In this document: positions 40,894-63,914 of the stretch, piece after piece | How the letters are laid out: each line of letters starts with the position of its first letter | Numbering within the stretch: the stretch's first letter is position 1 | DNA from: a virus | Lineage: Duplodnaviria; Heunggongvirae; Uroviricota; Caudoviricetes | Strand: one strand, 5' to 3' | Virus record (IMG/VR): IMGVR_UViG_3300029914_000004 | Length of the DNA: 64,000 nt | Position numbers and translations under genes: made by a program | Notes under the pieces: model-generated | Databases searched by the model: none | What the model was told of the DNA's origin: nothing | The model's input: only the letters and a program-made list of their open reading frames with translations

Positions 40894-40971
40894 GTTATTG
40901 AAAATAAAGCACTTATTTTTTACTTGACAAATGATCTAGAATTTAGTATTATTAAAGAGTAGCAAGAATAT

Positions 40972-41064
40972 GGGCTATGGGGCTGCTAGGGTGGCCACTG
41001 GTTTTGCACTCCAGAATCATCGAGAAATCGATACAGCGGGATTCAAATTCCCGATAGTCCACCA
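40972..41064 (+). tRNA. tRNA-Ala(TGC) with long variable arm
   Basis: GGGCTAT/ATAGTCC with G3:U70, ACCA; loop TT-TGC-AC; 22-nt variable arm. Confidence 0.8.
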
Positions 41065-41075
41065 AAAAATTTAGG

Positions 41076-41104
41076 TTGACAAACAAAGTAAAGTTTGATA
41101 GTAT
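41076..41104 (+). promoter_or_regulatory. sigma70-type promoter driving the ncRNA/tRNA run
   Basis: TTGACA-N17-TAGTAT. Confidence 0.7.
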
Positions 41105-41119
41105 AAAAGAGTAGCAAGA

Positions 41120-41522
41120 AATTGGTGCAACACAGCACGAAGTAGCACTCCAAATGCAGCGAATGAGAATTCGTTCAACAGATGGACAGACACATAATGT
41201 TTACTTGTAAAAGTGTTCTGACCTTAACGTGCCTGCGATAGTGAGTTGAATGGTGAAATGCCAGAAGAAAGTTCACCAGCCAATGAAGTTTAAAAATCGC
41301 TTTAGTAGCGATCTGATAGTAAATCAGTTCAGGAAGTATTTGACAATTGAAGAGAATATTGCAGAGCAACAGTGCTCTGTTTGAATATGAAAGTTACACC
41401 CGCCTACGTGGCAGTCCTAACTGAGACAGCATCACGACTTCAGGTGGCACGATGGTTGTAACGGGGCAAGCTTTCAGACTAATTAACAATTAGCGGCTGC
41501 GTACTGCCCGTAAAGTACGCAT
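41120..41522 (+). ncRNA. about 400-nt structured ncRNA candidate
   Basis: no credible ORF; many hairpins (GCGAAT/ATTCGT, GGTGAA/TTCACC, ATCGCT/AGCGAT, CAGAGCA/TGCTCTG, TGAAAG/CTTTCA, TGCGTACT/AGTACGCA). Confidence 0.65.
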
Positions 41523-41541
41523 AAAGTTTTGAAGTAAATAT

Positions 41542-41627
41542 GCCGTAATGGTGGAACGGAATACACTTTGGACTTAAAATCCAACGCTCTTATGAGATTG
41601 AGGGTTCAAATCCCTCTTACGGCACCA
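41542..41627 (+). tRNA. tRNA-Leu(TAA), class II
   Basis: TTGGA-CTTAAAA-TCCAA; long variable arm; ACCA. Confidence 0.9.
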
Positions 41628-41638
41628 AAAAGTTTAGT

Positions 41639-41756
41639 AGATCAATAGCTCAATTGGTTAGAGCAACGAGATTAACAGATCAAGTCGTAAAGCCACAAGC
41701 CTAAGATACTTGAAGTCACTCGTCGGTTGAAGGTTCGAGTCCTTCTTGATTTACTA
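41639..41756 (+). tRNA. tRNA, probably Leu(TAA), with 41-nt anticodon-loop insert
   Basis: intact D and T arms, stem ACGAG/CTCGT, 48-nt loop 41671-41718. Confidence 0.65.
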
Positions 41757-41767
41757 GAAAAGTTTAA

Positions 41768-41880
41768 CTCTGAGTCGCAAGACTATCGAAGTGACTAGGA
41801 AACTAGCTGGCATAACGAAATATTATGTTGGACCTTGAGAGTGACCACAGATGAATCTCAGTGAAAGCTAGAGATTTCAG
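41768..41880 (+). ncRNA. multi-hairpin spacer RNA candidate
   Basis: GTC-GCAA-GAC, CTAG-GAAA-CTAG, CATAAC/TTATG hairpins; CTGAG/CTCAG long-range pairing. Confidence 0.35.
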
Positions 41881-41894
41881 AGTTATAAAGTTTT

Positions 41895-41971
41895 GCCGCG
41901 TTCGTATAACGGATTATTATGCTCCGCCTTTAACGGAATCGATATGGGTTCAAATCCCATGCGCGGCACCA
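41895..41971 (+). tRNA. tRNA-Lys(TTT), C33
   Basis: loop CC-TTT-AA; GCCGCGT/GCGCGGC, ACCA. Confidence 0.75.
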
Positions 41972-41985
41972 AAGTTTAGATGTAT

Positions 41986-42062
41986 GCGTTCGTCGTATAG
42001 CGGCTTATTATACTTGTCTCTTAAACAAGCTGACGTGAGTTCAAATCTCACCGAACGCACCA
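41986..42062 (+). tRNA. tRNA-Lys(CTT)
   Basis: CTTGT-CTCTTAA-ACAAG; ACCA. Confidence 0.9.
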
Positions 42063-42078
42063 AAAGTTTTATAGTTAT

Positions 42079-42198
42079 GAGATTGTAGCTCAATTGGTAG
42101 AGCAACGCCCTTTTTTCGGGATGCTTCTTTGAGAGAGCATTCGATGGATGCTTTCAAAAAGGCGCAGGTTGTGGGTTCGATTCCCACCAGTCTCACAA
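42079..42198 (+). tRNA. tRNA-Lys(TTT) with 44-nt anticodon-loop insert
   Basis: GAGATTG/CAGTCTC; CT-TTT[insert about 42115-42158]AA. Confidence 0.7.
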
Positions 42199-42250
42199 AG
42201 ATTTGAAATTAAAACCATCTTCGCATAAATAAAGATGGAGGATCAATTAA

Positions 42251-42865
42251 ATGCCATTAGTAAATTGTCCAAAATGTAATACTGAATTTGAGAATAAAGG
42301 AAAATGGGGAACCAAAAAATTTTGTAGTAGAAAATGTGCCAATTCAAAAGATCGGCCACAAGAGTTAAGAGATAGAGTTTCTAAAAAATTAAAAGGAAGA
42401 ATTGGAAAAAGTATTTTTCTTTCTCCAGAGAAACTCATAAGTCGTAATCTTAAACTTAGAAAAACTTGGGATTTAAAATATGAGAATATTCCATTTGAAG
42501 AACTTTCTTGGGATTTACAAAGATTGCGAGTAATAAAAGAACAAAATAATTCTTGCGGAAAATGTGAAATTACTGAATGGTTTGAAAATCCAATAACTTT
42601 AGAAGTTGATCATATAGATGGAAACCGAAAGAATAATTGTAGAGAAAATTTAATTGCTATTTGTCCAAATTGTCATAGTATTACTACAACATGGCGCGGA
42701 AGAAATAGAAAAACTGTGGATTATAAAACTGATGAAGAAATTTTAAATGTTATTTTACAAACTGAAAATATTCATCAAGCATTAAAATTTCTAAATATGG
42801 CATGTCGAGGAGCCAATTATAAAAGATTACAACAGTTAATGGAAAAAAATAATATCTCTTACTAA
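42251..42865 (+). CDS. HNH homing endonuclease with N-terminal FCS..C Zn finger
   Basis: CPKC, FCSRKCAN, CGKC, LEVDHIDGN..NN.RENL..ICPNCHS; TAAATA upstream. Confidence 0.9.
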   Translation: MPLVNCPKCNTEFENKGKWGTKKFCSRKCANSKDRPQELRDRVSKKLKGRIGKSIFLSPEKLISRNLKLRKTWDLKYENIPFEELSWDLQRLRVIKEQNNSCGKCEITEWFENPITLEVDHIDGNRKNNCRENLIAICPNCHSITTTWRGRNRKTVDYKTDEEILNVILQTENIHQALKFLNMACRGANYKRLQQLMEKNNISY

Positions 42866-42871
42866 ATTTAT

Positions 42872-42976
42872 AGCCGTATAGCTCAATTGGTTCAGAGCAT
42901 TCCCCTTATTTAGGGCCTGTGCATCAGACCTTAAATAAGGGAAAGGTTGATGGTTCGATCCCATCTACGGCTACCA
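42872..42976 (+). tRNA. tRNA-Ile(TAT) with 27-nt anticodon-loop insert
   Basis: AGCCGTA/TACGGCT-ACCA; stem TTCCC/GGGAA; 34-nt loop 42905-42938. Confidence 0.75.
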
Positions 42977-42990
42977 CAAAGTTTAAATGT

Positions 42991-43051
42991 TGGCTTGTAG
43001 CATAATTGGCAATGTGTGACCCTGTTAAGGTCAAAGATGATGGTCCAGCCA
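42991..43051 (+). pseudogene. T-arm-deleted duplicate of tRNA-Asn(GTT)
   Basis: identical to 47275-47351 except GTTCGAGTCCCTCTGAG is replaced by T. Confidence 0.85.
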
Positions 43052-43062
43052 AAATTTAAAGT

Positions 43063-43181
43063 TTCGCTGTAGGGAAAATATACCCCGCTGCATGAGGCAG
43101 AAAGATATTGAGGGGCTGGTCAACGGCTATAGACGCCCAGTGAGTAAATATTTGATGGTGCAAATCCATCCGGCGATACCA
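43063..43181 (+). tRNA. tRNA-like element with shrunken anticodon loop and very large variable insert
   Basis: acceptor TCGCTG/CGGCGA + ACCA, T arm GATGG-TGCAAAT-CCATC, CTGC-ATGAG-GCAG arm. Confidence 0.5.
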
Positions 43182-43188
43182 ATTTTAT

Positions 43189-43323
43189 GGGATGGTAGCT
43201 CAGTAGAAGAGCAATGGCTATGAGGGGTAGTCTAGCGACGGTTAGATGAGACTCAAGTGCAAAAGTCATACGTCGAGAAGTCTGAAGGCCAAGGACATTG
43301 TGCAAATCCCTCTCATCCCATCA
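43189..43323 (+). tRNA. degenerate tRNA-like element with about 60-nt anticodon-loop insert
   Basis: GGGATGG/TCATCCC, D arm GCTC..GAGC, TGGC/GCCA stem; T stem poorly paired. Confidence 0.4.
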
Positions 43324-43395
43324 ATTTTAAAGAAAAGATGTTGGGTTCAATGGTCCGACTTCAAACTAACGTTAAGTCAAGTTTGAATAGTTTAA

Positions 43396-43469
43396 GCGGG
43401 GATAGTTTAAATAGTAGAATATCTGAGTTTCCGCTCAGAAGATGGGTTGCAAGTACCCTAACCGCTCCA
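43396..43469 (+). tRNA. degenerate tRNA-Gly(TCC)
   Basis: CTGAG-TTTCCG-CTCAG (6-nt loop); two acceptor mismatches; TCCA. Confidence 0.5.
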
Positions 43470-43480
43470 ATTTTATATAT

Positions 43481-43565
43481 GCGGGAGAAGCCTACTTGGT
43501 ATGGCACTGGTCTTCCAAACCAGAGATGAAAATCGCTGCGAGTTCAAATCTCGTCTCCCGCTCCA
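43481..43565 (+). tRNA. tRNA-Gly(TCC) with long variable arm
   Basis: GCGGGAG/CTCCCGC-TCCA; CT-TCC-AA; 14-nt variable arm. Confidence 0.9.
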
Positions 43566-43845
43566 TATTTATACATATGGAATAAAGGAAGAAAATTAAA
43601 ATGAAATATTGGTGTAAAAATTGTGAACATCTTCTGCCATTGAAGAACAATGAAAGAACAGAAAATTTCAAAGAATGGTGGATAGAAAATCGAGAACAAT
43701 TCAGAGAACTGCATCTCAATGGAGAGTGTGAAATAAAAACAACTCAGATACAGAAGGTGAATTTATATGCATAAACTTTTGTTTTTCTTAGCATTTGTTA
43801 TAATTGTATTTGTGGTGCATATGTTGAAGTGTAAATAAAGTTTGT

Positions 43846-43916
43846 CGCGGGGTGCAGGTTGCCGTTTCAGGCTCATAACCTTGAAATGTACGTGAGTTTC
43901 GATACTCCCTCCGCAT
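43846..43916 (+). tRNA. degenerate initiator-like tRNA-Met(CAT)
   Basis: CGCGGGG/CTCCGCA with C1:A72 mismatch, CT-CAT-AA; shortened D arm; no CCA. Confidence 0.45.
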
Positions 43917-43967
43917 CTTTTGAGCAGACACGCCGCCATGTTAATAACAAAAGATGCGTGTGAAAGT

Positions 43968-44190
43968 TTAAAATAATAATTTTTTAATTTCCTCAAATGC
44001 AGTATCAGGAGAATAAACACCATCATTAAATGATAAAACTTCCCAACCCGAATTTGTCAATTCTTTGATTTTTATTTTATCTCTGTTTTGAACTTGTTTT
44101 AAAGAAAAATTTTTAATTTTTAGTTGTTTGTAATGCCATGGTCCATTCCAAAGAATAGCAACTTTATAATCATCAAGAATAATTGTTTTG
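43968..44190 (-). pseudogene. inverted remnant of a Vsr/DUF559-like endonuclease C-terminus
   Basis: IILDDYKVAILWNGPWHY...QNRDKIK...GW.V; no credible N-terminus. Confidence 0.5.
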
Positions 44191-44304
44191 CATTGAAACC
44201 TCATATAAATAAAGATATGGCAGGACAAACTTGCAAAACCTCACAAGTGAACAAATATTCACAAGATATTTGTTCTTGCTGCCAATAGTATTTATCTTTA
44301 TTAA

Positions 44305-44375
44305 GGCACAGACAAGGATTTGCGCTCACCCTCATAAAGTGGTGCGAGTGGGATTATTCCCCACCTGTGCCACCA
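44305..44375 (+). tRNA. tRNA(CAT) Met/Ile2 with truncated D arm
   Basis: GGCACAG/CTGTGCC-ACCA; CT-CAT-AA; T-loop ATTATTC. Confidence 0.55.
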
Positions 44376-44757
44376 AAAATAACTAGGAGTTATCAAATGG
44401 CTTATTTACTTAAAAAAGGATATAAAATAGACAAAGGGATCAGAATATATGATAATGAAGAATCATTATTGCCTTGGTGTGATTTTAAAAATTGTAATAC
44501 ATTGGCGTCTCATAATGCTGATCAATATGTTGAGTTAAAATGCAATAAATGGTAGAATTGGTTATCATATCCAAAATTTTTATGCAAAGAACAGGAATTA
44601 ATGGGATGTGATCATCATCCAGTATCTTCAGAAATTGTTTATTTGGATGGACATTCAGAATTTTTTATTAAAATTCCACAAACAAGATGGCATAAACATA
44701 AATATGAGTTTATATTAGCTTTGATTTTTGCGGTACTTTGTGCGATAATTATTTAAG

Positions 44758-44786
44758 TTGACAAAAGATTTTAAAAGTTGTATAGT
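44758..44786 (+). promoter_or_regulatory. sigma70-type promoter
   Basis: TTGACA-N17-TATAGT. Confidence 0.8.
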
Positions 44787-44798
44787 AAAAGAATAGAG

Positions 44799-44869
44799 AT
44801 TTGCAGCACGCCGTAAATGTCTTATGACCTACCTCCAATTTGTTATAGACAACGATTCGTGTTGCAAAT
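44799..44869 (+). ncRNA. small three-way-junction RNA candidate
   Basis: ATTTGCAGCACG/CGTGTTGCAAAT closing stem with two inner hairpins. Confidence 0.45.
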
Positions 44870-44892
44870 AAAAGATATTGGTATAATGAGTA

Positions 44893-44963
44893 GTGCTTGT
44901 AGCTCAGTGGTAGAGCAGCCCCATTAAGAGGGCTGGTCGTTGGTTCGATTCCAACCAAGTATC
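44893..44963 (+). tRNA. tRNA, probably Leu(TAA) short-arm; anticodon uncertain
   Basis: canonical D and T arms; GCCCC-ATTAAGA-GGGCT with one mismatch; no CCA. Confidence 0.55.
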
Positions 44964-45058
44964 AAAGTTATACTAGGCGCAGATAGACCATAATTGGTTC
45001 GCGGCCATGTTGGGAACGTCTCGTGAAATCCATCGCGCCCGCGATCTGAAGTAAAGTT

Positions 45059-45213
45059 TGTGTTAGTTGCTGTATTATTAGCCGAAGGAGCAAGAGCACC
45101 AGATGGAAAACTGGAGATTTGGCATTACGCCAACCAATTGCGTAATGTGTCTGTGATCTAGCTAGGCGAGATGGGATTATCACTATTGGTAGATAACTCC
45201 ACTGACTAACACA
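45059..45213 (+). ncRNA. 155-nt multibranch RNA candidate
   Basis: TGTGTTAGT/ACTAACACA closing stem; CATTACGC/GCGTAATG, CCAG/CTGG, GTGAT/ATCAC helices. Confidence 0.5.
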
Positions 45214-45245
45214 ATTAGATATTAAAAAAAGTAGTGTCGCTGTAA

Positions 45246-45311
45246 GTATAATGTCGTCTAATGGAAGGATAGCGTGAACGCAAGATGCGAGTTCGACTCT
45301 CGCCTTATACT
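45246..45311 (+). ncRNA. tRNA-like RNA lacking an anticodon loop
   Basis: acceptor GTATAA/TTATAC, D-loop TAATGG, perfect T arm GCGAG-TTCGACT-CTCGC, anticodon arm only GCG-TGAA-CGC. Confidence 0.6.
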
Positions 45312-45368
45312 GAAGACACTTGAGAGTTTTCTTTAAACGAAAACTCTCCGCGATTAGTAATACAAGTA

Positions 45369-45478
45369 TGAAATGTCTGACTTGAAGCGCTCTCTGGCAA
45401 GGGCGTAAAGGCCAGATCGATGCAATATCCAAAGGCCAGAGTGCTGATGGAAGTGCAAAGTTCAAGTCAGACATTTCA
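45369..45478 (+). ncRNA. 110-nt rod-like RNA closed by a perfect 18-bp stem
   Basis: TGAAATGTCTGACTTGAA/TTCAAGTCAGACATTTCA; inner CTCTGGC/GCCAGAG. Confidence 0.55.
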
Positions 45479-45489
45479 GTAATTTTATC

Positions 45490-45615
45490 GGGGAGAAACT
45501 ATAGAGTTAGCTATAATGGGGAGAACTAAAGCGATGGCTGGCGATGGCCCAGAAGGAGCTACTTTAGTTTTATGATCTAGAAATAGTTGCTGGTTTCAAC
45601 ACTAGCGCCCCGCCA
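45490..45615 (+). ncRNA. CCA-ended tRNA-mimic candidate
   Basis: GGGG/CCCC-G-CCA; T-like arm GCTGGT-TTCAAC-ACTAGC; AACTAAAG/CTTTAGTT helix. Confidence 0.45.
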
Positions 45616-45698
45616 ATTTAGTAGTGACATTTGTTAGGCAGAGGTTAACGGTTTAGGGCACTCTGCCTGATGATGGAAAGAAATATACTAAAAAGACT

Positions 45699-45911
45699 GT
45701 GCCGAACGAAATATATGAAGCACTACTTGAATATATTGAAGAGTACAACCTTGATTGTGCTGACAATTTTCGATATTCTCCAAAAAATGATCCAGAAGGA
45801 ATGGATGAATATTTAACTATTTCTCAACGTGGGTGTTGTGGTCGTGCTGACTTTTTAGCATGGGAAAATAATGGGCAAGAGTGGGTTATTGGTTGTAATT
45901 ATGGACATTAA
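45699..45911 (+). CDS. small hypothetical protein
   Basis: GCCG..D...G..W.IGCNYGH. Confidence 0.55.
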   Translation: MPNEIYEALLEYIEEYNLDCADNFRYSPKNDPEGMDEYLTISQRGCCGRADFLAWENNGQEWVIGCNYGH

Positions 45912-45931
45912 ATTTAACAAAAAAGGAAAAT

Positions 45932-46450
45932 ATGATCACATTAGAACAATGGTTAAAAGCAATTAAGTATAGAATCACTGAGGGATCAGATTATAATTGG
46001 GAAAGCTATGGACCAAATGCATATAGTTTGGATTATTGGGATCAACTCCACAATGGAGTTGACACTTCAATAATTATCGATAAATTAACTGGAATTGTTT
46101 ATCAATGCGAAGTTTGTGATTATGAAAAGAATGTTGCATATCGCATTATCAATCCAGCCTTTAAAGACAGTCATATTGGAGAAGCTGAGCAGAAAAATCT
46201 TGATCATGGTTATGTTGATGAAGCTTGGGAAAATGTTCCATATTGTGACTCAGAAGTTGATGATTTCCTAGAGAAACTACATGCCATTGTCAATCATGAA
46301 TCATACGATACTCGTTCAAGTGTTTCACTAGATTTAGATGAAAAAACAACATTTACATTGATGAAGATGGCGCATGAAAAAGATATAACTTTTAATCAAT
46401 TAATTTGTAATATTTTAAACGAGGTGTTTTTGAATCCAAATACAACATAA
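45932..46450 (+). CDS. conserved phage protein
   Basis: MITLEQW..AI.YRITEGS.Y.W; C-terminal L..L.KMAHE.DITFNQ. Confidence 0.7.
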   Translation: MITLEQWLKAIKYRITEGSDYNWESYGPNAYSLDYWDQLHNGVDTSIIIDKLTGIVYQCEVCDYEKNVAYRIINPAFKDSHIGEAEQKNLDHGYVDEAWENVPYCDSEVDDFLEKLHAIVNHESYDTRSSVSLDLDEKTTFTLMKMAHEKDITFNQLICNILNEVFLNPNTT

Positions 46451-46462
46451 CTAGATTTATAT

Positions 46463-46540
46463 GGCTCTATAGCTTAATTAGATTAAAGCACTTCACCGTC
46501 AATGAAGGAGATGGGGATGCAACTTCCCTTGGAGCCGCCA
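46463..46540 (+). tRNA. tRNA-Asp(GTC), C33
   Basis: CTTCA-CCGTCAA-TGAAG; G73, CCA. Confidence 0.85.
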
Positions 46541-46679
46541 ATTTTTAAATAGTCTGGTTAAGTCCAGCAAGCGCAGGATACGCGAGAGTTAATGACTCTT
46601 CCACCAGCGCCTTAAATTTAGGAGCAAACTGCCAGAAAATTAGGAATTAGTTCTACTGCTATTAGAAAAAGATTAAAAC

Positions 46680-46755
46680 GGCAACTTAACACTGATGGTC
46701 AGTGTGCTAGACTGAAAATCTAGAAAACTCAGATCGTTACTGAGAGTTGCCACCA
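46680..46755 (+). tRNA. tRNA-Phe(GAA)
   Basis: CTAGA-CTGAAAA-TCTAG; T-loop ATCGTTA; ACCA. Confidence 0.85.
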
Positions 46756-47158
46756 TAAGTTTAGGAGTATTATGACAACAATAACAATTAAGGAAGCAGC
46801 GATTCTTTCTTATCTGTCAAAACAGCCAATTGAATCTGAAAGAATTGAATTAACAAAACGCTTGGGTGTAGAAGCTAAAGAACTTGCTATTTCTTTGATA
46901 AATAAAAAATAATATGAAAATTGAATTAGATTTGACTGAAGATGAAATAAAAATGCTCAAAAAGCTTACAACTACTGGTGGAAATAGAGCCGCAGTTTGC
47001 AGACCAGTTCATGATTCAGTATATTCAAAAATTTGCAAGGCAATAAAGTTAGAAAAAGAAAATCAAGAACCAGTTAAATTTCTTGGATTTTCTGGACCAT
47101 TGATGATTTTTCTGATTATCCATTATTAGCAGAAAATCATAAGAAATAAAATTAAGTT

Positions 47159-47261
47159 CATTCAGTAATTCATTTATCATAGTAGCGAAGTAACGCATGA
47201 GTAAAATCGGAAAAGGTTGTTAGCCAATCCATGATAAAATTCTAGATGGAATTACTGAATG
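47159..47261 (+). ncRNA. about 100-nt rod-like RNA candidate
   Basis: CATTCAGTAATTC/GAATTACTGAATG and TTATCAT/ATGATAA stems. Confidence 0.45.
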
Positions 47262-47274
47262 TTAGTTTAAATGT

Positions 47275-47351
47275 TGGCTTGTAGCATAATTGGCAATGTG
47301 TGACCCTGTTAAGGTCAAAGATGATGGGTTCGAGTCCCTCTGAGCCAGCCA
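47275..47351 (+). tRNA. tRNA-Asn(GTT)
   Basis: TGACC-CTGTTAA-GGTCA; G73, CCA. Confidence 0.85.
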
Positions 47352-47379
47352 AAAATTTAGTTGTTGAAGGGTGTGCCGA

Positions 47380-47769
47380 ATGGCAAGTATGACAAAAGAT
47401 CAAATTAGATATAATGATCCTACAACTGGAAGAAAAAAATATCTTATTAAAAAGGTAACAGATCGCAGAATTACAATTCGCAAAAAAGTAGTAGAAATTT
47501 TGGGAGGAAAGTGTTTGCTATGCGGTTATGATAAGTGTGGAAATGCATTATGCGCACATCATCTTGATCCAAAAGAAAAAGAGTTTGGTTTAAGTTATAA
47601 AGGTTTGTGTAGGAGTTGGATTAAAGTTCTTTCTGAATTAAAGAAATGCGTTTTGCTTTGCGCTAATTGTCATGCAGAAGTGCATGATGGATTGATTATT
47701 CCTAATGAATTAATAATACAAACTAGAAAACGTGTAGAGTGTGAAGAAAGTTTAGTTGTTCCTTCGTAG
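47380..47769 (+). CDS. HNH endonuclease
   Basis: GGKCLLCGY.KC..AL..HHLDP..K.F...ELKKCVLLCANCHAEVH; stop overlaps the next tRNA; flanked by TTTAGTTGTT direct repeats (47356, 47751). Confidence 0.9.
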   Translation: MASMTKDQIRYNDPTTGRKKYLIKKVTDRRITIRKKVVEILGGKCLLCGYDKCGNALCAHHLDPKEKEFGLSYKGLCRSWIKVLSELKKCVLLCANCHAEVHDGLIIPNELIIQTRKRVECEESLVVPS

Positions 47770-47885
47770 CTCAATTGGTAGAGCGGGCGGCTGTGCGAGA
47801 TAGATAATGGAATTTAACCAGTTCAAATCTGGAATCTCGAAAAGTAACCGTCAGGTTGGGGGATCGTGGCCCTCCGAAGGAGCCA
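47760..47885 (+). tRNA. tRNA-Asn(GTT) with 50-nt insert inside the anticodon
   Basis: TCCTTCG/CGAAGGA-GCCA; GGCGG/CCGTC; CTGT[47795-47844]TAA. Confidence 0.75.
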
Positions 47886-47890
47886 AAAAT

Positions 47891-48028
47891 TATAGTGGTG
47901 TGTTTTGAACGGATAACAAGTCAGACTCTATGTGTATACAACGGTGATATGACACTGATTGGGATGGCCGACTGTTGCGAACGGGAATATGACCGTGAAG
48001 TGCCCCAAAGTCTGTGTCTGCCACTATA
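47891..48028 (+). ncRNA. 138-nt structured RNA candidate
   Basis: TATAGTGG/CCACTATA closing stem; CAGAC/GTCTG pairing; GC-richer than flanks. Confidence 0.45.
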
Positions 48029-50038: not shown

Positions 50039-50126
50039 CGGAATGGCGGCAGGCCTGGTTTGCCTCCACGTTTGGGGCGTGGCGTTCGTAAGAACATCGT
50101 AGGTTCAAATCCTATCATTCCGACCA
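50039..50126 (+). tRNA. tRNA-Pro(TGG) with long variable arm
   Basis: CGGAATG/CATTCCG-ACCA; TT-TGG-GG; 16-nt variable arm. Confidence 0.85.
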
Positions 50127-50574: not shown

Positions 50575-50943
50575 ATGAAACTTTGGTTAGATGATATTCG
50601 TGATCCAAAGAGATATGGTTATCATGATATGTATTGGGCTAAAAATTATAATGAAGCGATTGCTGCTTTGAAACTTGGTAAAGTAACATTTGCTTCATTA
50701 GATCATGATATTGGTGCTTGTGAAGATTGTGTAAAATCGTTGTCACACATTGGAGACATGCGCTCGCCTGAGACAACATTTTTTAATCATTGCTCACATG
50801 AAAAATCTGGTTACGATGTAATTTGTTTTATGGAAGATAATGATATATGGCCAACAGACGGTGTAAAAGTTCATAGTATGAATCCAGTTGGCAAAGAAAG
50901 AATGAATCAAGTGATTAGAAAGCAGTATGGAAGAACTTGGTAG
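50575..50943 (+). CDS. cyclic-phosphate-processing receiver-domain (cREC-like) protein
   Basis: MKLWLDDIR, W.KNY.EAI, SLDHD.G, GYD, VHS.NPVG. Confidence 0.75.
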   Translation: MKLWLDDIRDPKRYGYHDMYWAKNYNEAIAALKLGKVTFASLDHDIGACEDCVKSLSHIGDMRSPETTFFNHCSHEKSGYDVICFMEDNDIWPTDGVKVHSMNPVGKERMNQVIRKQYGRTW

Positions 50944-51441: not shown

Positions 51442-52070
51442 ATGAATTGTACTTTATGTAATAAAGAAACAAAAATCCAAAATTTTGTTCGCAATCTTGC
51501 TCAGCAAAATTTTCAAATAAAAATAGAGAACGATCTTTTGATTCACGAGTAAAAATAAGTTCGTCTTTAAGAAATTGTAAATCTCTTTCAACAAGTATTG
51601 AATGTTCAATTTGTGCTAGGAAATTTTATAAATTTGAGTCTAAAGGTAGAAAATATTGTAGTCTTAAATGTTGTGGAATTGCAAAGAAAAATAAATTCAC
51701 TGCTGATTTTTCTCTGAATGGAAAGGGAAATCATAAAAGAGTGTTAATACATGAGCGTGGTTATAAATGCGAACGATGTAAAAATAGTGAATGGATGGGA
51801 ATAGAAATTAATTTGCAATTAGAACATAAGGATGGAAATCATTTTAATAATGAAAAAACAAATTTAGAGCTTTTATGCCTCAATTGCCATAGTCAAACAT
51901 TAACATTTAATCGTAAGAAAACAGCAAAACTTATTTCTGACGATGAATTTTTAAAAGTATTAAATTCATCTAAAAATATTCGTCAATGTTTATTAAAATT
52001 AGGTTTGCAGCAAGGTAGCACAAATTATGATAGAGCCAAAAGATTATTAAGAAGAAATATGCAGCCGTAG
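51442..52070 (+). CDS. HNH endonuclease with Zn fingers, frameshifted at an A5 run
   Basis: MNCTLC; one extra A at 51471-51475 gives NPKFCSQSC ... LEHKDGNHFNN..NLELLCLNCHS. Confidence 0.75.
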
Positions 52071-52147
52071 CCTAGTGGATTCAGGCACCAGTCTACGAAA
52101 CTGGAGAGGAAACTCTAACGCAAGTTCGAATCTTGTCGGCTGCACCA
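52061..52147 (+). tRNA. tRNA-Arg(ACG) with long variable arm
   Basis: CCAGT-CTACGAA-ACTGG; AGAG-GAAA-CTCT arm; overlaps the HNH stop. Confidence 0.9.
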
Positions 52148-62049: not shown

Positions 62050-62709
62050 ATGAATAATATTCAGCAAACTCGATATAAATACCCAAGAACTTTCCATTTC
62101 CCAGAAAGCCCTGGTGCCATGAATGACGATAGGATTCTTGATCCAATAGAGTCTTATGCAAAATGGGATCATGAAGTCGTGATTACTGAAAAGAGAGATG
62201 GCGAAAATTTTTCAGGATATAATGACGGCTAGCATGTGAGAAGTTTGGACTATGAAGCGCATCCAAGCAGAAATCGAATCGCTGCACTTCACGCTCGTTT
62301 CTCTTATCTTATTCCTGATGGTTGGAGAATTTGCGCAGAAAATCTTACAGTGAAACACAGCATCAAGTATAAAGATTTGCAAGAAATTTGTGAAGTATTT
62401 GGAATTTGGAATGGAGAAACTTGTTTAAGTTGGGACGATACTGTGATATTTTCTGCATTATTGGAATTACCAACAGTTCCTATTTTATGGAGAGGAATTT
62501 GGAATCCTGAATATTCTAGCGTGTTTGTAGATCAAATTTCAAGAATGATAAATCCAGAAACTCAAGAAGGATTTGTTGTTCGCCCAACAGCATCATTTCA
62601 AATGAAAGATTTTAATCATTTGGTTGGAAAATGGGTTAGAAAAGGTCACGTTACTTCTGGAGAACATTGGATGCGTTCTCAAATTGAATATAATGAAATC
62701 AGTGGTTGA
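62050..62709 (+). pseudogene. Rnl2-type RNA ligase interrupted by an in-frame TAG (62230-62232)
   Basis: KYPRT.H.P.SPG...DD, TEKRDGEN, *HVRSLD..HPSR, ENL..KHSI, EGFVVR, KWVR..HV; both parts in the same frame. Confidence 0.8.
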
Positions 62710-63820: not shown

Positions 63821-63914
63821 ATGAGTGAAGGGCAATCCGGTTTGGCTCAGCAGTCTCCAAAACTGCCGTCTCTGAGAAGAGCAAATGTAGGTTCAAATCC
63901 TACCACTCATGCCA
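63821..63914 (+). tRNA. tRNA-Trp(CCA) with long variable arm
   Basis: GCAGT-CTCCAAA-ACTGC; 20-nt variable region; GCCA. Confidence 0.85.

Follow-up and report, generated by a model that had tools for sequence, protein, structure and literature searches.

Short introns in the tRNA genes of Lak megaphages have been called "enigmatic" (Devoto et al. 2019, PMC6784885). They were the only case that we found in the literature on short phage tRNA introns, and such short inserts went unmentioned in reviews that cover jumbo phages or bacterial group I introns. The locus described here, a phage tRNA-Ile(UAU) gene interrupted by 27 nt, resembles the Lak genes in that a short, non-group-I insert sits in the anticodon loop of a tRNA from a very large phage, in that alleles with and without the insert exist, and in that the route of removal is unexplained in both. 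It differs from them in form. A tRNA shape is predicted for one or more of the Lak inserts, and a tRNA-Asn insert of the present phage has it too, whereas the Ile insert was found once and consists of nothing but a 27-nt hairpin, paired with the anticodon. The tRNA-Ile(UAU) insert is a variant of a known but poorly understood kind, the short phage tRNA inserts.

In yeast, the intron of tRNA-Ile(UAU) pairs with the anticodon, and Pus1 depends on it to form pseudouridines 34 and 36; the intron thereby gates U34/U36 modification and guards against the misreading of AUG (PMC9602550). The phage gene likewise specifies an AUA reader with a UAU anticodon, and its intervening sequence is predicted to pair with that anticodon in the precursor. 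However, eukaryotic introns lie at 37/38, with splice sites in bulges that are cut by TSEN, while the phage junction falls between 34|35 and 36|37 in an uninterrupted duplex. Also unlike the eukaryotic case, no splicing endonuclease is known for the bacterial host, and a search of the phage contig for a pseudouridine synthase of family PF00849 found none. By analogy with yeast, it is plausible that the phage insert serves to gate modification against AUG misreading.

Three bacterial or phage systems are also related. Group I introns interrupt the anticodon loops of bacterial and phage tRNAs, with tRNA-Leu(UAA) and Azoarcus tRNA-Ile among the examples (PMC3984707, PMC13168695). The site in a bacterial-type tRNA is the same, and such introns often go with homing endonucleases, but they are ribozymes built around a conserved core and measure roughly 200 nt or more, whereas the Ile insert has 27 nt and no catalytic fold. 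Phage T4 uses Pnkp and Rnl1 to repair tRNA anticodon loops damaged by host anticodon nucleases (background in PMC7824862). The present contig has Pnkp, Rnl1-type and Rnl2-type ligases, which could seal a break between U36 and A37, and T4 Pnkp plus Rnl1 are reported to be able to stand in for the yeast tRNA splicing ligase (Schwer et al. 2004). The T4 repair pathway, however, is not known to remove encoded inserts, and no candidate gene for a cutting enzyme was found on the contig. Finally, tRNA-Ile2 of Mycoplasma mobile functions with an unmodified UAU anticodon in the company of a co-adapted IleRS and ribosome, while on E. coli ribosomes an unmodified UAU anticodon misreads AUG (PMC3575796). 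The phage tRNA is similarly a bacterial-type AUA reader with UAU instead of a lysidine-modified CAU, but the M. mobile gene is uninterrupted, whereas the phage gene is interrupted. Because E. coli IleRS charges UAU tRNAs poorly (PMC3575796), the usefulness of the phage tRNA depends on the host.

As a test object the locus is of the simplest kind: a 105-nt gene, a hairpin, one predicted 78-nt product, and candidate sealing enzymes on the same contig. We know of no protein-dependent tRNA splicing shown in bacteria or their viruses. If the insert is spliced, tRNA splicing would have a third known route, the phage enzymes Rnl1, Rnl2 and Pnkp would gain a constructive role besides repair, and the convergence with the eukaryotic tRNA-Ile(UAU) intron would be striking. 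If it is not, the gene would be a commonplace tRNA gene, put out of action not long ago, in an array that changes fast and has many homing endonucleases.

An interrupted tRNA-Ile(UAU) gene in a phage tRNA array

The stretch of DNA analysed (the window, 64,000 nt) is part of a 127-kb IMG/VR virus record (G000:19536-83535) with a CheckV completeness of about 49%, and DNA of this contig is contained in many peat metagenome runs. Its genes mark it as a large tailed phage and include those for ribonucleotide reductase, NAD-dependent DNA ligase, NAMPT and several HNH endonucleases; the genes of the window lie almost all on one strand, at a GC content of about 33%. Between 40.6 and 65.7 kb runs an array of more than 33 tRNA genes, and CCA is encoded in 30 of 33 array tRNAs. 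In most of them the CCA is followed by an A-rich AAAGTT or AAAATT, a common spacer motif that may be a processing signal.

We confirmed that the interrupted gene (Table 1) is a real gene of the tRNA-Ile(UAU) type. Rfam RF00005 matched 42872-42973 with 58.3 bits (E 2e-10, gathering score 29), covering model positions 1-71 in full and placing about 30 extra bases into the anticodon loop, and ARAGORN, with introns allowed, returned a tRNA-Ile(tat) with a 27-nt intron and a 78-nt product. All stem pairs are intact (seven acceptor, four D, five anticodon and five T), the T-loop reads UUCGAUC, G18 and G19 are present, the discriminator is A73 and the CCA is encoded. The 3' flank, CCA-CAAAGT, has the AAAGT context of the working tRNAs of the array. 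The identity elements recognised by E. coli IleRS are A73, C4-G69, U12-A23, C29-G41, A35, U36, A37 and A38, and the 78-nt product carries all eight. A sequence-only reading of this DNA had proposed a tRNA-Ile(UAU) with a 27-nt insert, and these calls, like the homologues described below, bear it out.

That reading had also claimed that three alternative junctions all give CT-TAT-AA. This is the case: the AT at 42908-42909 recurs at 42935-42936, so three different 27-nt deletions all yield the loop CUUAUAA. The predicted spliced junction is CCCCUUAU|AAGGGAA. Its description of the genome as rich in ATA was equally correct, since ATA accounts for 17.8 per 1000 codons and 22% of Ile codons in this phage. 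A second AUA-reading tRNA was not found on the 127-kb contig.

Among cultured phages, blastn gave half-tRNA matches only and no full-length match. The 5' half is most like CAU-type tRNAs of T4-like Klebsiella phages, which are annotated mostly as tRNA-Met and once as tRNA-Ile; by identity they would be minor Ile tRNAs. A pattern scan of the prokaryote genome collection did not find the tRNA-Ile(UAU).

Table 1. Coordinates of the interrupted gene and of the features discussed with it
Feature	Position	Strand	Evidence or remark
Interrupted tRNA-Ile(UAU) gene, 105 nt, CCA encoded	42872..42976	+	Rfam RF00005, ARAGORN -i
5' exon: acceptor 5' strand, D arm, anticodon-stem 5' strand, C32 U33 U34 A35 U36	42872..42909	+	Collinear with L033, L035, L037
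27-nt insert	42910..42936	+	27-column gap in alignment A3; equivalent placements 42908-42934, 42909-42935
3' exon: A37 A38, anticodon-stem 3' strand, variable loop, T arm, acceptor 3' strand, A73, CCA	42937..42976	+	
Predicted extended helix burying U33-A38	42903..42941	+	13 bp, C-A mismatch, 3 bp, UGCAU loop; folds and shuffles
Free-standing HNH endonuclease gene	42251..42865	+	PHROGs HNH families, best E 1e-23; ends 7 nt before tRNA-Ile
Sister tRNA, ~44-nt anticodon-loop insert, no CCA	42079..42196	+	Rfam 58.1 bits, fold
Defective tRNA-Asn copy, T arm missing	42980..43052	+	Rfam 31.5 bits; starts 4 nt after the Ile gene
Sister tRNA-Asn(GUU), 50-nt structured insert	47760..47885	+	Insert kept in G001
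HNH ORF overlapping the 5' end of the interrupted tRNA-Asn (47760)	47371-47769		PHROGs E 9e-21
HNH ORF overlapping the 5' end of the 87-nt tRNA-Arg(ACG) (52061)	51741-52070		PHROGs E 6e-22
cREC (cyclic-phosphate processing receiver) protein gene, inside the tRNA array	50575..50943	+	PF20274, E 3e-21
Rnl2-family RNA ligase gene, motif I KRDGEN, one in-frame TAG	62050..62709	+	PF09414, 77 bits
Long tRNAs (85-94 nt)	40972-41064, 43481-43565, 50039-50126, 52061-52147, 63821-63914		
Eneladusvirus tRNA-like genes	L031 394-509, 2043-2164; L032 170-283, 993-1118, 2003-2123		

Relatives carry the gene without the insert

Using a gapped pattern anchored on the anticodon stem, we found an uninterrupted tRNA-Ile(UAU) in three contigs, one from IMG/VR (L033) and two from the metagenome collection (L035 and L037). 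When these were aligned with the window (alignment A3), the D-stem and anticodon-arm sequences were identical and a single clean gap of 27 columns remained. The uninterrupted homologues therefore identify the 27 nt as an insertion independently of any fold, and its removal restores exactly the loop and arm that they have. Compared with L033 and with L037, the spliced tRNA of the window keeps 21 of 21 stem pairs, with four double compensatory changes in each comparison and no broken pair; the other differences are in loops. Three further candidates from the search (L034, L036 and L038) were chance matches and not tRNAs.

The phage behind L033 (G003) is a more distant relative of the window phage, with collinear proteins at 45-71% identity. 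Its tRNA-Ile(UAU) (L033 5702-5778, G003 41186-41259) scores 74.3 bits and has no HNH neighbour (n = 1). This gene lies far from the small tRNA cluster of that phage and adjoins a homologue of the NAD-dependent DNA ligase. There are hints that an AUA reader is specially retained in this phage group. A second relative, G001, recognised by its NAMPT locus (NAMPT 85% identical), has its own uninterrupted Ile(tat) with a different body.

The insert itself appears to be a lineage-specific singleton, and we saw no conservation of the 27-nt hairpin among the sequences searched. No second copy was found in the 127-kb contig with up to five mismatches. Patterns for the 5' exon, for the 3' exon, and for both anchored around a gap of 20-50 nt returned no insert-bearing relative from IMG/VR or the metagenome collection, and a search for related loci through the cREC and HNH proteins gave nothing useful. 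Among the contigs of four peat runs, none spans the insert and no insert-free allele was present. No RNA run was among the datasets listed as containing 41540-43100 or 41500-48000. Skips of 50 or 51 nt at other tRNAs in peat contigs had short sides and probably belong to tRNAs of other organisms.

The insert is a hairpin that buries the anticodon

The insert is a near-palindrome placed at the centre of the self-complementary UUA|UAA loop; its arms, TTTAGGGCCTG and TTTAAGGTCTG, match at 9 of 11 positions. In the RNA, CTTATTTAGGG (42905-42915) pairs with CCTTAAATAAG (42929-42939), one G-U pair included. The minimum-energy fold of the whole gene (-41.2 kcal/mol) keeps the normal cloverleaf acceptor, D and T arms and joins 42903-42915 to 42929-42941 in 13 continuous pairs, which contain these 11. 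Its z-scores are -5.0 for the gene and -5.4 for the arm alone. The register of this 13-pair helix is one base off the normal 5-bp anticodon stem. A tRNA-compatible alternative, with the normal 5-bp stem, a bulged C32 and a 10-bp extension, reaches -39.5 kcal/mol, 1.7 above the minimum, and pairs U33 with A38, U34 with A37, A35 with U and U36 with A. The predicted helix then has about 19 stacked layers (5 bp, bulge, 10 bp, mismatch, 3 bp). Both low-energy folds bury the anticodon; a fold in which the anticodon loop is open reaches only -22.4 kcal/mol.

How much of this exceeds chance can be judged from shuffled inserts. None of 1000 shuffles reached -41.2 kcal/mol (mean -29.5, sd 2.5), and very few random 27-mers from the window attained the stability of the insert. 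All three anticodon bases, on the other hand, were also paired in 30% of the shuffled inserts. Because UUAUAA is self-complementary, a hairpin at its centre prolongs the stem automatically, and the paired anticodon is weaker evidence than it sounds. The insert is a real hairpin, and what lies above chance is its stability, not anticodon pairing as such. The claim in the sequence-only reading that the insert base-pairs the anticodon thus stands for the fold, with two reservations, the 30% of shuffles that do the same and the register shift of one base. The asymmetry of the arm mismatches between strands is uninformative, as each strand has one wobble pair and one mismatch. Complementarity of the insert (CATCAGACCTT) to the variable/T-stem region was not significant (p = 0.16).

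The folds support a primary transcript in which the anticodon would be sequestered, so that decoding would be impossible, and exact removal of the 27 nt is supported as the only way to a decoder. To this extent the earlier picture of a caged AUA reader holds; that the tRNA is then activated is something we infer.

Other shapes proposed for such inserts did not fit. A tRNA-shaped insert would contain an acceptor-like stem and a T-arm-like hairpin with a 7-nt loop of the GTTCRANYC type; the Ile insert is a single hairpin with a UGCAU loop and has neither. Excision by RNase P plus RNase Z, at 12 layers from the loop, would remove 30 nt instead of 27 and leave a 4-nt loop. The hairpin top was also ruled out as a second anticodon loop (GUGCAUC), as position 37 would be U.

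Healing and sealing enzymes on the contig

Downstream of the window, at G000 103585-108298, lies a T4-like repair cluster. Its Pnkp (103585-104550) combines a P-loop kinase (AAA_33) with a HAD_PNKP domain, and its two ligase genes (105128-106228 and 107201-108298) encode a PF09414 enzyme with an OB fold and a PF09511 enzyme of the Rnl1 type. Just upstream of the cluster is an HNH gene. The window adds the cREC protein and an Rnl2-family ligase (Table 1), as well as an R2K ATP-grasp protein and a weak RlaP-like nucleotidyltransferase. The in-frame TAG of the Rnl2-family gene lies at about 62230, and no tRNA with a CUA anticodon was seen in the array; this gene could be a pseudogene or be read through.

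By these domain assignments, the contig encodes the healing and sealing half of a splicing pathway, while the cutting half has no candidate gene there. We found no match to tRNA_int_endo (PF01974), which was detected in archaeal control genomes, and no RtcB or RNase III gene on the 127-kb contig. These searches covered about 49% of the phage genome, and a splicing endonuclease of phage or host may be encoded elsewhere.

Other interrupted and defective tRNAs, and their HNH neighbours

Four array tRNAs have anticodon-loop inserts, at 41639 (41 nt), 42079 (about 44 nt), 42872 (27 nt) and 47760 (50 nt). The insert at 42079 joins a run of U to a run of A in the U33-A38 register that the Ile insert also uses. 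The genes at 41639-41754 and 42079-42196 are two of only three array tRNAs, out of 33, that do not encode CCA. Their anticodons vary with the junction chosen: UAU, UAA, UGU or AGU for 41639, and UUU or UUA for 42079.

The insert of the tRNA-Asn(GUU) is tRNA-shaped and contains CCAG-TTCAAAT-CTGG. Its counterpart in G001 has equal length; 23 of 50 bases are identical and 12 of 15 pairs are kept, with six double compensatory changes. Because the structure of this insert is conserved, the lineage keeps at least one structured anticodon-loop insert under selection.

The region downstream of the Ile gene tells of recent change. The 64 nt at 42980-43043 are 100% identical to 47264-47327, which comprise a spacer and the first 53 nt of the tRNA-Asn(GUU) at 47275, and relative to this source (47264-47351) the copy has lost the T arm through a 16-nt deletion. 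From this identical, T-armless copy it follows that the array was rearranged very recently and tolerates defective tRNAs.

Three unusual tRNAs, namely the tRNA-Ile, the interrupted tRNA-Asn and the long tRNA-Arg, each have an HNH ORF that stops at their 5' end or runs past it (Table 1). In the relative G001, no HNH gene lies directly upstream of the interrupted tRNA-Asn.

A possible protein-processed intron

The explanation that we favour, with a probability of roughly 0.4, is that the insert is a protein-processed intron, excised by an endonuclease, after which the exons are rejoined by a phage ligase. In this view a lineage-specific hairpin of 27 nt entered the phage tRNA-Ile(UAU) gene in the middle of the palindromic anticodon loop (UUA|UAA). 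The resulting precursor would be inert, with a normal tRNA body and a prolonged anticodon arm in which U33, U34-A35-U36, A37 and A38 are all paired. An endonuclease would then cut both strands of this prolonged helix, and a phage RNA ligase would join U36 to A37 to give a 78-nt tRNA that reads AUA. We infer that excision takes place, by which nuclease and at which junction, as well as any role in regulation or in the gating of modification. Overall, the interpretation offered in the sequence-only reading is partly supported: a caged tRNA activated by processing is plausible, while its regulated activation over the infection time course would be pure conjecture.

Several observations argue for processing. 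The body is undecayed, with 21 of 21 stem pairs, the Ile identity set and the CCA plus AAAGT context kept, and taking out the 27 nt gives exactly the loop and arm of the uninterrupted homologues. The gene is the only AUA decoder found on a contig in which ATA makes up 22% of Ile codons. The lineage maintains the tRNA-Asn anticodon-loop insert under structural selection, and the contig encodes Pnkp, an Rnl1-type, an OB-fold PF09414 and a third, Rnl2-type ligase, and cREC. Against processing stand the apparent singleton status of the insert and its three uninterrupted homologues, the absence of a splicing endonuclease, RtcB or RNase III gene from the contig, and the neighbourhood, in which a defective tRNA copy is adjacent and two other insert-bearing tRNAs have no CCA.

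One of the three junctions, near the middle of the helix, has the 2-nt 3' overhang of an RNase III-type cut. RNase III substrates are coaxial double helices of about two turns, of which both strands are cut to leave such an overhang, and among the well-known bacterial enzymes RNase III is, to our knowledge, alone in making staggered cuts at defined positions in the two strands of a regular duplex. Cuts of this type in the 19-layer helix, after 42909 (42909|42910) and after 42936 (42936|42937), would free the hairpin with a 2-nt 3' overhang and leave exon ends with 3'-OH and 5'-P that Rnl1/Rnl2-type ligases could seal directly; Pnkp and cREC could heal other end types. The geometry is weak evidence, however, because any hairpin in the U33-A38 register gives a 2-nt overhang by symmetry. 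With nothing beyond this symmetry-given geometry behind the assignment, RNase III is unlikely to be the enzyme. A wider proposal, that bacterial viruses own a protein-only form of tRNA splicing in which a dsRNase (host RNase III or a phage enzyme) cuts and Pnkp, Rnl1 or Rnl2 seal, so as to gate U34 modification or to hold the AUA reader inactive until the phage enzymes appear, is in our judgement similarly unlikely.

Alternative explanations

A dead or dying gene is the main rival; it fits almost equally well and is only a little less probable. Here a quasi-palindrome would have been inserted recently at TTA|TAA at the DNA level; the gene would be inactivated and its transcript never spliced, the host would decode AUA, and the body would not yet have decayed. 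Such an event requires no new biochemistry, and no known bacterial route removes an insert of this kind. It would account for an insert that is a singleton while relatives carry the uninterrupted gene, and for a DNA palindrome (9 of 11 arm matches) exactly centred on a 6-bp palindrome. The surroundings also fit, with the T-armless tRNA-Asn copy, identical to its source, 4 nt downstream and the adjacent insert-bearing tRNAs at 41639 and 42079 lacking CCA. In a variant of this explanation the insertion may be linked to the adjacent HNH gene, for instance by disrupting a target site and so shielding the phage against the HNH enzyme that it encodes; this gene stops 7 nt before the tRNA, and the uninterrupted G003 allele has no HNH neighbour, although this is a single case. 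What a dead gene leads one to expect less is a body in which no pair is broken and no conserved base lost across 78 nt, with CCA and spacer context kept. The force of this point depends on timing, for the very recent rearrangement of the array makes an intact body uninformative if the insertion was recent. That the palindrome arms differ at 2 of 11 positions while the body is undamaged also speaks against it, weakly, as the insert need not have started perfect. Two further facts point away from disuse: the gene is the only AUA decoder found in an ATA-rich genome, and a different anticodon-loop insert (Asn) is kept under selection in the lineage.

If the RNA is never spliced, it might instead be the product itself, a non-decoding, tRNA-shaped RNA with a long closed anticodon arm that acts, for example, as a decoy or sponge for host anticodon nucleases or tRNA-binding enzymes, or as a chargeable non-decoding tRNA-like molecule. 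The intact body and CCA and the very stable helix suit this role. Host defences that cut tRNA anticodon loops or arms are widespread and phage tRNAs evolve evasion (PMC10264068, PMC12445682, PMC12409363), and in cultured Eneladusvirus phages tRNA-like genes of 114-126 nt have the anticodon region replaced by other structures. Yet the closed-arm form shows no conservation, the exons keep a perfect Ile anticodon loop and identity set for which a decoy has no need, and the insert bears no resemblance to a known protein-binding motif, Rfam giving tRNA only. We consider an unspliced product quite improbable.

A conventional intron, either a self-splicing group I intron or an archaeal/eukaryal bulge-helix-bulge intron, is extremely improbable, even though both classes occur at this position of the anticodon loop. 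Group I introns have a P3-P9 core of about 200 nt or more, with U preceding the 5' splice site and a final G, and in bulge-helix-bulge introns each splice site lies in a 3-nt bulge, with 4 bp of helix between the two bulges. With 27 nt the insert is too small for a group I core; it ends in A or T instead of G, and no Rfam intron or ribozyme matched up to E 5. There is no bulge-helix-bulge motif, because every candidate junction lies inside a continuous duplex: all three junction pairs fall in the 13-bp helix, without 3-nt bulges, and the irregularities (C32 and the C-A mismatch) lie elsewhere. The contig also has no tRNA_int_endo homologue. An assembly artefact, in which the hairpin would be a mis-join absent from the phage DNA, has next to no chance of being right: palindromes can break or confuse short-read graphs, and contig pieces among those listed from the peat runs do end near the hairpin, but 99% of sampled 31-letter words of the 6.5 kb at 41500-48000 are present in several independent peat runs, a contig of one run (X9) has its start within the insert (42916) and agrees at every position up to 43234, and the insert is not a copy of flanking sequence.

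Further features of the array and of related phages

Homologues of the HNH protein encoded upstream of the tRNA-Ile gene are found in cultured Eneladusvirus phages, where they follow tRNA-like genes of 119-122 nt. Such genes, of 114-126 nt, were seen in Erwinia phage pEa_SNUABM_50 and Yersinia phage fHe-Yen9-04, one of them just upstream of the HNH homologue. They are annotated as Phe(aaa), Lys(ttt), Pseudo or Undet, and a conserved GATTC...GAATC hairpin with an ACAGCA-type tail takes the place of the anticodon region.

Within the array of the window phage, several tRNAs for Ala, Gly, Pro, Arg and Trp, which usually have a short variable loop, reach 85-94 nt through long variable arms or extra hairpins. 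A 50-nt element (family D4) is repeated at 40924-40973, 41076-41125 and 44758-44807. It begins with TTGACAAA, holds a TATTAT/TATAGT-like box and AAAGAGTAGCAAGAA, and probably represents a family of phage promoters within the tRNA array.
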